Source: a virus
Length of the DNA stretch: 36,878 nt
Strand: one strand, 5' to 3'
UHGV virus genome: UHGV-0228197
Shown here in pieces: positions 33,001 through 36,000 of this stretch; position 1 is the first letter of the stretch; every line of letters starts with the position of its first letter. Made by a program: the position numbers.

Positions 33001-36000
33001 TAAATATCAATGGCCGTGGAAAACCCCAGCTGGCGTGCTTTCAGGATAATATTTTTATTGTGCATGCTCCGGAACAACTGGCGCTGCGCCGGTCGCATTC
33101 TGAAGGTGACCAGCTCACCTTTTTCGTTCTGTATCTTGTAGAGATGATTGAGCCGCCACCAGGGATTGCTCAGTTTAGTCATGATGAACAGACGTTGTTC
33201 GGCCTCTGTCATTTCTGACGGTTCATCACATCGCGGTTCATTCTTCCGGAATGTCATCCAGTCTCCCCGAATTACTCATTTCATGCAGCGATGACACGAT
33301 GTCACTGACAGGCGTAACAACGCCCCGACGCTGGCTGGTCAGAATATCGGTTTCCGCTCTGAGTTTATCTCTGGCAGCGTTGGTTCTTTCCCGGTCAGCA
33401 CGAAGTTTTGGTGCTGTTTCAGCCAGAACGTCCAGCGTCAGCAATGAGCGTTCAATTGACTCGATACGGGCAATATTCCGGTCAAGAGCCTGTTCAGCTT
33501 TGAGTATTTTGTCGTACAGAGCAACGCGGGTTTCCACGTCAGCCGCCTCTTTCAGGTCGGCGAACATTTTTTTCAGTGTTCCTGTTACTGAAAGTGCGCG
33601 GGCCCGGGTAAACACCAGTTCATCGGCAAGTTCCATTCCGACTGCATCATCTATGAGGTTATCTGCCTCGAGATACTTCGCGTATCCACGGTGTCTGACG
33701 GCGTGGGTGTTACGCTGAGAAAAAGCATTTGAAGGTGGCAAAAGTCTGGAACCACGAGTCCGTTTCGTTTCTGCCAAATTTGCGCATTTTTCATCACAAC
33801 CATCATCGCCTGAAGGCTCGTCATGACTGGAGTTGCCGTCAGATTTCTGCGCACTTTTTTGATCATCAATTTGCGCATTTTTCTGCGCACTTTTCTCTGT
33901 ATTTCTGGGGGAGTGTTTGCGCAGTTTAATGTACCGCCGAGCCGTGTCATAACTGATATTGTTCTGACGGCACCAGTCCTGAAGCTTTATGCCGGTTTTG
34001 ACATGTTCGCGTCGAAATGCCTGCTCCAGCTTTTTCCAGTCCAGCTTTGCCATGTCACCTTCTGACGTTCTCTGTTAAAAACTGATGCACAATGACTGCT
34101 GTAAATTTTCAGATTTCACACAGCAGAGCCATGTCTGATTAATGTTTAACCTTATTTAGGTTATATCCGCTTCATTCCACTACAGCACCAGATAGGCTGC
34201 CTCGCGGATAAATGCCAAAGTCTCCTGATATAGAAACCCGTCGCCACATCGAGCGCTGATCAACATTTGTATATTCACTGCGACAGAAAGAATTTATTTT
34301 ATTGAATAGTTAGAAATACAGAATTGCATGCTTTATAAGCATTGACGCACACTTCATTTTTAGCAATATATTCTGTTCTCATAGACGATCAGCCCTGCAT
34401 GCACTGCCGGACACCGTCGGCAATTTTACAGACCTAAGAGGCAATACCAAAAAGCTAACGCGCTTTATCAAGACTTGAACAACCAACCAATAAAAAAAGC
34501 ACCAGTACCGCTACCAATGCCCATTTCGTCGTTGTTCACAGCATTCTGTGTACCCACTGTATTTCGCGTCATATCACCACGTCAGACAATCCTTAAGGAT
34601 TACATAAGATTTACGCATAATAATGCCCATTTTCAACACAGACAAGGGAATTTATATGTTAAATCAAACGCTAACAAAATCTCTTCTTATATTTTTACTT
34701 GTCATAATCGTTTCTGTATCCATCATATACATTGTAAGAACTCCAGTCAGACTTGATGTGAACGATGTCACTGAGATTAACCAGAAACATCCCATTATTT
34801 TTCTCATCCGGCATGGGGAAAGATGCGATCGCTCCCAAAGAATATGTCTTTCAGCACATGAGGGAATCACAGTAAACGGAGCTAACAAAGCTCAACAATA
34901 TGGAGATAAATTCAGAAGAATGTTTCCATACTACAGTCTCTATTCTACAGACACACTCCGAACAATGCAGACAGCCACTTTTTTTTCGGGAGGTAAGACA
35001 GCAACTATTCCGGACATATCGACATGTGATGATAACGCAGTAAATAATATCCTTAAAATATCAAAATCAGATCATGTTACTGTGATTTTCACACATAATC
35101 ACTGTCTGTCCAGAATTGCAAAAAAAATGAATGGATGGAGATTTAAACCTGATTATATGGGCACACTGGTTCTGCATCGGGAAAATCACAATCTGATTCT
35201 CGACGGACATTTAAAACCAAACGAGCTTACCCAGTGATCCATTTGTTGATAATGCACTGGCATTGATTCAGGTTATATCTCTCCTCATAAAAAAGGCCAG
35301 CGATTGAGCTGGCTCTGTTAATCGAGGCATTGCATCCTGATGTACTCCTGCAGGTAGTTAACCTGCGCGGTTATCTTGTCGATTCCACTTCGGAGACGGT
35401 AATAATTGAGTTCAGCATCTGCTGTAAGTCCTGAGCTTTCTCCATCGCCCATGCCGCTGGCTCCGGTCGTTGACTTTGCACAGGTGGCGGCGACTTGCAG
35501 GCGCTTACGCCCAGCAGAAACATCAGCACGGAGACTTTCAATAGTCGCGTTAGCATCAGCAAGCTCCCTGGTGTATCTGGCATCGAGTGCAGCAACATCA
35601 CGCTGGCGCTGCTGTATGTCAGCAATGGTGGCGTTCGCCTGGCTGAGTTTTGTCTTCGCATCATCTCGCTGCTCTTTGTAGGTGATGGCGTTATCACGGT
35701 AATGGTCTGTTGCCAGCCACAGCGATCCACAACCAAGCAGCAGGACAATAAGCATGCCATACAGCACACGATTCATATCACCACCAACGGATTGCCCAGA
35801 CCAGAACAGCAATTGCCACAATACGAATGGCAAAAGCTGCCGCTCTTGTTAAATCCAGACTTGCTGGCGTCTCCACCTCAATGCCTTTCATAATGGACAA
35901 CCTCAGAAAGAATCTTTTATACTTCCTCACAGGGAAAGAACCTCCCTACCCATAATTTCTCCCTTGCCTTATTCAAGGTCAGAAACACAAAACCCCGCTT

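Follow-up and report, generated by a model that had tools for sequence, protein, structure and literature searches.

The window analyzed here is the whole of a 36,878-nucleotide stretch of viral DNA (UHGV virus genome UHGV-0228197), and all positions given for it refer to its full length. The stretch is a lambdoid Escherichia coli prophage of the 933W type without stx, and our subject is a plus-strand gene in it which lies between the lysis and the terminase genes, as the initial annotation of this DNA had it. Its neighbors are the lysis gene Rz and the small terminase gene, and it runs antisense to the late operon. The gene encodes a histidine phosphatase related to Ais of E. coli and PmrG of Salmonella and is preceded by a direct repeat resembling the pmra-box, the element recognized by the host response regulator PmrA/BasR. 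Its annotation is already known, as RefSeq and the Prokaryotic Genome Annotation Pipeline (PGAP) name the product (WP_000934362.1) "lipopolysaccharide core heptose(II)-phosphate phosphatase". The one new observation made here is the conserved, portable candidate pmra-box, by which the gene probably answers to a host two-component system. The coordinates of all features are collected in Table 1.

The protein scored 202 bits against the NCBIfam subfamily model NF011945/PRK15416 (cut-off 142), with residues 10-187 of 193 aligned, and 28.9 bits against Pfam His_Phos_1 (PF00300; cut-off 21.7). BLASTP against K-12 Ais gave 43% identity over 158 amino acids (aa), covering residues 32-186. The match to Ais/PmrG, which had been claimed across the whole length, was checked by these alignments and holds for most of the protein, except for an N-terminal anchor that has no homology to the signal peptide of Ais. 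The RHGERCDRS motif was found as described, spanning R52-S60 with H53 as the predicted nucleophile. In family alignments of 10 and 45 members, R52, H53, R56, C57, D58, R59, S60, C64, H147, and C150 were invariant among the 45, and E55, R102, and H149 were nearly so. The RHG motif (R52-H53-G54) is thus accompanied by R102, H147, and H149 as the second-Arg/His pocket residues, and, by this conservation, the protein has an intact catalytic pocket of the branch-1 histidine phosphatase type. Four cysteines are likewise invariant or nearly so among the 45 homologues, which fits an oxidizing, that is periplasmic, location of the domain. Pairwise ratios of nonsynonymous to synonymous divergence (dN/dS) among the prophage homologues were 0.18-0.25 at dS values of 0.3 to ∼1, and the phosphatase gene is under purifying selection.

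An AlphaFold2 model of the protein (predicted local distance difference test score 91, predicted template-modelling score 0.84) consists of an N-terminal helix (residues 2-27) and a globular domain. Foldseek searches of the PDB with this model returned SixA, PGAM5, phosphoserine phosphatases, and RosC at probability 1.0, with template-modelling scores of ∼0.55 when the transmembrane helix was included, and the modelled domain accordingly has the alpha/beta phosphoglycerate-mutase-like fold. A search of the PDB with the sequence gave no match. The hydrophobic segment of the helix, SLLIFLLVIIVSVSIIYIV, has a mean Kyte-Doolittle hydropathy of 3.06 over its 19 residues and, in contrast to the N-termini of chromosomal Ais and PmrG, the N-terminus lacks an AxA-type cleavage site; it is likely an uncleaved signal anchor. 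Of the membrane-anchored phosphatase initially proposed, the hydrophobic segment and the modelled helix are therefore present, and anchoring on the periplasmic side is what we infer from them. Judged by its sequence, the protein belongs to the Ais/PmrG family of histidine phosphatases, retains its catalytic residues, and is predicted to be active.

Upstream of the gene, the direct repeat CTTAAG-GATTA-CATAAG occupies the place of a -35 element (∼-39 to -23). The pmra-box is made of two hexamers 5 nucleotides (nt) apart which substitute for the -35 element, as stated in the cryo-electron microscopy paper on the PmrA activation complex (PMC10570014). A promoter scan of the plus strand upstream of the gene found no sigma-70 -35/-10 pair, which fits an activator-dependent promoter. 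The -10 hexamer first proposed, CATAAT (34616-34621), lies 7 nt from the box and was replaced by the overlapping AATAAT 3 nt downstream, because only the 10-nt spacing of the latter is conserved in the box-bearing homologues and matches that of arnB and eptA. Transcription would then begin near 34631. An AAGGGA resembling a Shine-Dalgarno sequence stands 6 nt before ATG 34656, homologues have a G-rich element in the same position, and this ATG is the likely translation start. The open reading frame (ORF) extends from 34623 to 35237; ATG 34623 was rejected as a start because it precedes the point where transcription is inferred to begin, is not conserved, and is passed over by PGAP in favor of 34656. 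A promoter-like site on the minus strand (34645..34617) overlaps the phosphatase promoter.

The box is significant only because homologues conserve it, and conserve it in a fixed geometry. We anchored upstream regions on the start codon, and in a first set of nine loci, eight carried xTTAAK-N5-YWTAAK and, separated from it by exactly 10 nt, a -10-like hexamer (AATAAT, TATAAT, TATATT, or AACAGT), with the box beginning 64-71 nt upstream of the ATG. When the 120-nt upstream region of each of the nine loci was shuffled 2000 times with dinucleotides preserved, the full pattern arose in 0-3 of the 2000 shuffles per locus. One homologue has a perfect CTTAAG-N5-CTTAAG (L044) and another CTTAAG-N5-TTTAAG (L033). 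Four more homologues (L049, L050, L051, and L052) were fetched once the pattern was fixed. The two in prophage context, L050 and L051, carry GTTAAG-N5-CTTAAT, 10 nt, and CATAAT, and their box begins 64 nt upstream of the ATG; upstream of the AraC-adjacent L049 and the EAL-adjacent L052, the pattern was sought and not found. Overall, 10 of 11 diverged prophage or plasmid loci with intact upstream DNA keep the box pattern, the 10-nt spacing, and the -10. In a box-anchored alignment, TTAA of half-site 1 and TAA of half-site 2 were identical in all eight sequences, while at most five of the eight agreed in the flank upstream of the box, in the 5-nt spacer, and over a large part of the 10-nt linker. 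Synonymous divergence among the box-bearing lineages is near saturation (0.7-1.0 or more), and their flanks cannot be aligned.

Known PmrA-dependent promoters have the same layout. In K-12, arnB has CTTAAG-GTTAA-GTTAAT, 10 nt, and TAAAAT, and eptA has CTTAAG-GTTGG-CTTAAT, 10 nt, and GAGCAT, so that the arnB (pbgP) and eptA (pmrC) promoters share with the window promoter the two hexamers, the 5-nt spacer in place of the -35, and the 10 nt to the -10. They differ from it in the second half-site, which is CATAAG in the candidate box of the window and TTTAAG, CTTAAG, or CTTAAT in its homologues. The pbgP box of Klebsiella pneumoniae is CTTAAT-N5-CCTAAG, with recognition centered on the AA bases (PMC10570014), and CCTAAG and the CATAAG of the window deviate at the same half-site position. 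The reading as a PmrA-box is weak on the window alone and, as a prediction, strongly supported by phylogenetic footprinting together with the arnB/eptA architecture. The promoter of the window gene is compact and of class-II type, its box being 64 nt from the ATG, whereas chromosomal ais shares the arnB box, which is ∼190-320 nt away. Chromosomal ais-arnB intergenic regions (L006-L021; K-12, L003 5780-5850) contain a single, nearly palindromic pmra-box (CTTAAGGTTAAATTAAT / ATTAATTTAACCTTAAG), and in several species a -10-like hexamer follows this box at 10 nt on both strands, a hint that transcription in the two divergent directions could depend on the same box.

Table 1. Positions of the phosphatase gene, its candidate control elements, and the neighboring genes in the window.
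Feature	Position	Strand	Remarks
Moron cassette (box, -10, 5' untranslated region, coding sequence, terminator)	34583..35317	+	GC (guanine plus cytosine fraction) 0.376; ∼735 bp
pmra-box-like direct repeat CTTAAG-GATTA-CATAAG	34592..34608	+	At the -35 position (∼-39 to -23)
-10 hexamer AATAAT	34619..34624	+	10 nt past the box; spacing conserved in box-bearing homologues
Shine-Dalgarno-like AAGGGA	34644..34649	+	6 nt before ATG 34656
Coding sequence, Ais-family histidine phosphatase, 193 aa, WP_000934362.1	34656..35237	+	NF011945, PF00300, PGAP
N-terminal hydrophobic helix, residues 9-27, putative uncleaved signal anchor	34680..34736	+	Hydropathy, AlphaFold2
Catalytic motif RHGERCDRS, R52-S60, H53 predicted nucleophile	34809..34835	+	Family alignment
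GC-rich hairpin GCCAGC-N6-GCTGGC	35296..35313	either	Terminator scan and sequence; between the convergent phosphatase and Rz genes
Small terminase gene	33238..34053	-	Left neighbor of the phosphatase gene
Rz lysis gene	35318..35833	-	Right neighbor, convergent with the phosphatase gene

The DNA that carries the gene and its promoter is set off sharply from the phage around it. GC is 0.375 in the phosphatase gene, close to that of the whole cassette, and 0.51 and 0.52 in the flanking terminase and lysis genes; the region 34054-34655, described initially as AT-rich, is indeed so (0.404). To the left, the DNA at 34220-34580 is ∼78% identical to other lambdoid prophages without the phosphatase gene, and homology with two such prophages (SE11 L004 and L005) stops at ∼34582, 9 nt before the repeat, so that only ∼9 nt of cassette DNA lie upstream of the box. 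In these two prophages the flanks are contiguous, with a small minus-strand ORF directly abutting the lysis gene. On the right, the cassette is limited by the end of Rz at 35318, just past a hairpin. On the minus strand, where it follows the lysis cassette, this hairpin has a T6 tail and makes a strong terminator; on the plus strand its T tract is weak, and so is the terminator by comparison. We thus find an extra gene between genes that are adjacent in relatives, with its own predicted promoter and terminator and deviant GC, as is expected of a moron, and by this layout the cassette is a self-contained low-GC moron, which bears out the initial view. Expression from a repressed prophage would agree with the antisense orientation and with the separate promoter. 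Neither the protein nor the region 33900-35400 had a match in PHROGs, PADLOC, or Rfam, and the region thus belongs to no phage family, defence system, or RNA already known.

A 34-aa minus-strand ORF (MTRNTVGTQNAVNNDEMGIGSGTGAFFIGWLFKS) at 34468-34572 corresponds, in truncated form, to a hypothetical ORF of 60 aa which is conserved at the lysis/terminase junction of other lambdoid prophages (∼78% DNA identity); it had no match in PHROG or Rfam. We rejected it as a part of the feature because it lies beyond the cassette, in conserved phage backbone, and is truncated here.

Homologues with 54-85% identity fill the same slot in other prophages, always antisense to the late operon. These prophages differ in their holin/endolysin sets (lysozyme, M15 peptidase, or GH108) and in their terminases (Nu1/GpA, Terminase_2/6, TerL/HNH, or DUF1441), and a few homologues, on plasmids or in Salmonella, are flanked by insertion sequences (IS). 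The slot and orientation are, we assume, those of lambda bor, which lies between Rz and the packaging genes, runs against the late operon, and is expressed in the lysogen. Besides the slot and orientation, the cassette shares with bor-type morons a promoter and terminator of its own, a deviant base composition, and its absence from collinear relatives; unlike them, it carries a homologue of an LPS (lipopolysaccharide)-modifying enzyme rather than a lipoprotein, and its promoter is apparently wired to a two-component regulator of the host.

The prophage itself carries Q, a NanS-p-like esterase gene, holin, lysozyme, Rz, terminase, and portal genes, and an N4-gp56-type capsid gene. Identical sequence is present in complete E. 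coli genomes, including that of the outbreak strain O104:H4 2011C-3493, and the exact cassette was found in 43 of 5426 complete E. coli genomes and in one phage record, GER2, of INPHARED. The prophage occurs in the O104:H4 outbreak lineage as well as in porcine and bovine E. coli. A scan of species-representative genomes returned chromosomal ais orthologues only; the prophage clade was reached through look-ups of the exact protein and through the E. coli genome collection. As mapped on NC_018658.1 (2531592-2572868, with the phosphatase gene at 2551685-2552266), the prophage has its integration site next to ynfF. Further accessory genes in it encode Hok/Gef toxins, an Ail/Lom outer-membrane protein, a Cor exclusion lipoprotein, and RelE/ParE and Doc toxins, and its NanS-p-type SASA esterase occupies the spot where Stx phages carry stx.

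From these observations, we consider it fairly probable that the gene is a PmrA/BasR-activated moron encoding an inner-membrane-anchored periplasmic phosphatase, which would most likely act on the phosphate of heptose II (Hep II) in the LPS core. Through PmrB, PmrA/BasR answers to Fe3+ or Al3+ and to mild acid, in Salmonella also indirectly via PhoPQ-PmrD. The phosphorylated regulator would bind the box at ∼-39 to -23 and recruit RNA polymerase in a class-II-like manner, replacing the sigma-4 contacts at the -35. As the box replaces the -35 and stands 10 nt from the -10, transcription is expected to depend on phosphorylated PmrA/BasR, and the transcript of ∼0.7 kb would end at the hairpin. With its N-terminal helix in the inner membrane and its catalytic domain facing the periplasm, the enzyme would take the phosphate of Hep II off core-lipid A after flipping, by homology with Salmonella PmrG, the one member for which dephosphorylation of Hep II is known (PMC8129183, citing Nishino et al. 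2006). Such dephosphorylation could lower the negative charge of the surface and reduce the binding of metals or other cations. Chromosomal ais is a separate core gene (5413/5426 genomes), and therefore the prophage copy is an extra, divergent enzyme, which would act alongside it. PmrA binding, the periplasmic topology, the Hep II phosphate substrate, and any phenotype are in this account predictions from sequence.

The likeness to Ais and PmrG extends over several traits, viz. membership of the NF011945 subfamily, the RH[GA]ERCDRS and FTHNHCL motifs, the same conserved cysteines, a similar size, a hydrophobic N-terminus suggesting export, and a pmra-box in the control region. The window protein departs from them in its sequence (43% identity, below the cut-off for PmrG), in its long, uncleaved-looking anchor as against a signal peptide with an AxA-type site, and in its prophage position between Rz and terminase as against the chromosomal site divergent from arnB/pbgP.

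Several points weigh against the proposed reading, on the side of regulation as well as on that of the substrate. The second half-site has an A at position 2, one mismatch from YTTAAK, and a search of the window for YTTAAK-N5-YTTAAK, one mismatch being allowed, gave 3 matches where 1.5 are expected, a number which 21% of shuffles reach; we thus rejected the window alone as a basis for significance, and of the PmrA-box-like repeat of the initial annotation it is the presence and the conservation that stand. The search pattern was partly set after the first loci had been seen, and the loci share ancestry and are not all independent lineages, so that the shuffles overstate independence. In the close homologue L026 (3940-3960), half-site 1 is lost (CAAAAA), and in L031 (Salmonella) and L038 IS elements stand in place of the upstream DNA and box, and the ORFs are intact despite these changes. 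Judging by base composition, H-NS may silence the low-GC cassette. The window statistic, the imperfect half-site, the shared ancestry, and the changes in L026, L031, and L038 would suit a repeat that is not a working PmrA site and whose TTAAG repeats persist by shared cassette ancestry, with low constitutive expression off the AT-rich -10 or with control by H-NS or another OmpR-family regulator (e.g., the PmrA paralogue QseB). We regard this as rather improbable, as at dS of at least 0.7-1.0 the flanks and spacer are randomized but TTAA, TAA, and the 5-nt and 10-nt spacings persist in 8/8 sequences, the architecture is identical to that of arnB and eptA, no alternative -35 is present, and the non-prophage paralogues examined have no box. 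The variants L026, L031, and L038, and a plasmid copy with C57Y within the RHGERCDRS motif (L045), could act as ready-made promoter or enzyme mutants.

As for the substrate, the PmrG equivalog model NF052369 was failed (113 bits; cut-off 170), and with only 43% identity to Ais and a different N-terminus the substrate could differ. The protein is a paralogue of PmrG and not an orthologue, because it falls below the equivalog cut-off and because synteny and N-terminus differ; the identification as Ais/PmrG first made is hence upheld at the level of the subfamily and not at that of PmrG proper. In PmrA-constitutive E. coli, deletion of chromosomal pmrG left polymyxin resistance unchanged (PMC8129183), and therefore the benefit may lie elsewhere (metal tolerance or receptor masking) or be subtle. 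Together with the apparent redundancy of a simple duplicate where ais is nearly universal, and with the presence of family members on other mobile elements, e.g., IncI traG beside the shufflon/pil region, these points leave some room for an enzyme under the same regulation but acting on another envelope phosphate, such as Hep I phosphate or pyrophosphorylethanolamine (PPEtN), the lipid A 1-diphosphate, undecaprenyl-linked intermediates, or a phosphorylated O-antigen or capsule residue. Alternatively, masking of LPS-core receptors may be the selected role, through superinfection exclusion or a change in how phages, colicins, or pili recognize the cell, in which case metal or peptide resistance would not be. 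We consider either version unlikely, though to be kept in view, as the catalytic core and most of the conserved residues lining the surface are common with Ais and PmrG, the Ais subfamily model was passed, and PADLOC gave no match; moreover, 933W-type phages are known to adsorb to BamA rather than to the LPS core. Finally, a truncated prophage-type homologue (P0066, UMNF18) is labelled "transcriptional activator AfrS", some paralogues stand beside two AraC-family genes (L049) or beside EAL and chaperone-usher or SPATE genes, and some moron-bearing prophages also carry an AraC gene, from which one could take the protein for a regulatory factor that co-activates fimbrial or other surface-structure genes with an AraC-family protein, and not for an LPS-modifying enzyme. 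This is highly unlikely, as the name AfrS comes from an annotation that is unverified, the protein combines a putative membrane anchor and conserved cysteines with a full phosphatase active site and lacks a DNA-binding domain, no AraC gene is adjacent to it in the window, and effects on pili could be indirect, via a change of the envelope.

Members of the Ais family occur on other mobile or accessory DNA as well. Conjugative plasmids of IncI type carry one, and about 1440 PLSDB plasmids, mostly conjugative, have this copy, which shares 45.6% identity with residues 40-184 of the window protein; in plasmid pN441 (LC567071.1; L047 2950-3462), it is annotated traG and lies between rci/traF and traH, with no pmra-box upstream. 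Other Ais paralogues, 43-57% identical, are adjacent to EAL-domain genes (L035-L037, L039, and L052) or follow two AraC-family genes (L049), and their neighbors include EAL-domain genes, chaperone-usher fimbrial genes, a SPATE autotransporter, and AraC-family regulators. The IncI TraG and these fimbria/EAL/AraC-associated, partly "AfrS"-labelled paralogues resemble the window protein (43-57% identity) in family and in their mobile or accessory setting. They differ in lying inside other operons or next to other regulators and not at a lysis/terminase junction, and no upstream box was found in those examined, whether beside EAL, fimbrial, or AraC genes or as IncI traG.

The PilV adhesins of the IncI shufflon region recognize the LPS of the recipient, and a link between LPS-core editing and the LPS-recognizing thin pilus of IncI plasmids is a speculation of ours. 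A broader reading, which we offer with considerable doubt, is that mobile elements repeatedly employ Ais-family periplasmic phosphatases to edit LPS-core phosphates, these enzymes being found in lambdoid prophage morons, in IncI TraG by the pil/shufflon region, and in fimbriae/EAL/AraC islands. The prophage box would plug such an enzyme into the PmrAB system of the host at any site where the cassette integrates, and the selected function would be control of surface recognition and not just the supply of an extra PmrG, with superinfection exclusion, avoidance of self-mating, and pilus or adhesin compatibility under envelope stress as possible roles.

A full-text literature search found no paper on a prophage-borne ais or its regulation, and a search on locus tags and AfrS found nothing relevant. 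Because the family is known and RefSeq annotates the gene, the advance would be incremental; it would concern regulation and ecology and not a new mechanism. If the PmrA-activated moron proposed here is real, the host would gain from the prophage a second LPS-core phosphatase, induced by Fe3+, acid, or antimicrobial peptides, from a phage promoter borrowed from the polymyxin-resistance regulon of the host. The enzyme would be a candidate for modifying the charge of the outer membrane, the tolerance of metals, and the display of receptors. In essence, the cassette would be a compact example of lysogenic conversion, in which a moron is hard-wired into a two-component system of its host.

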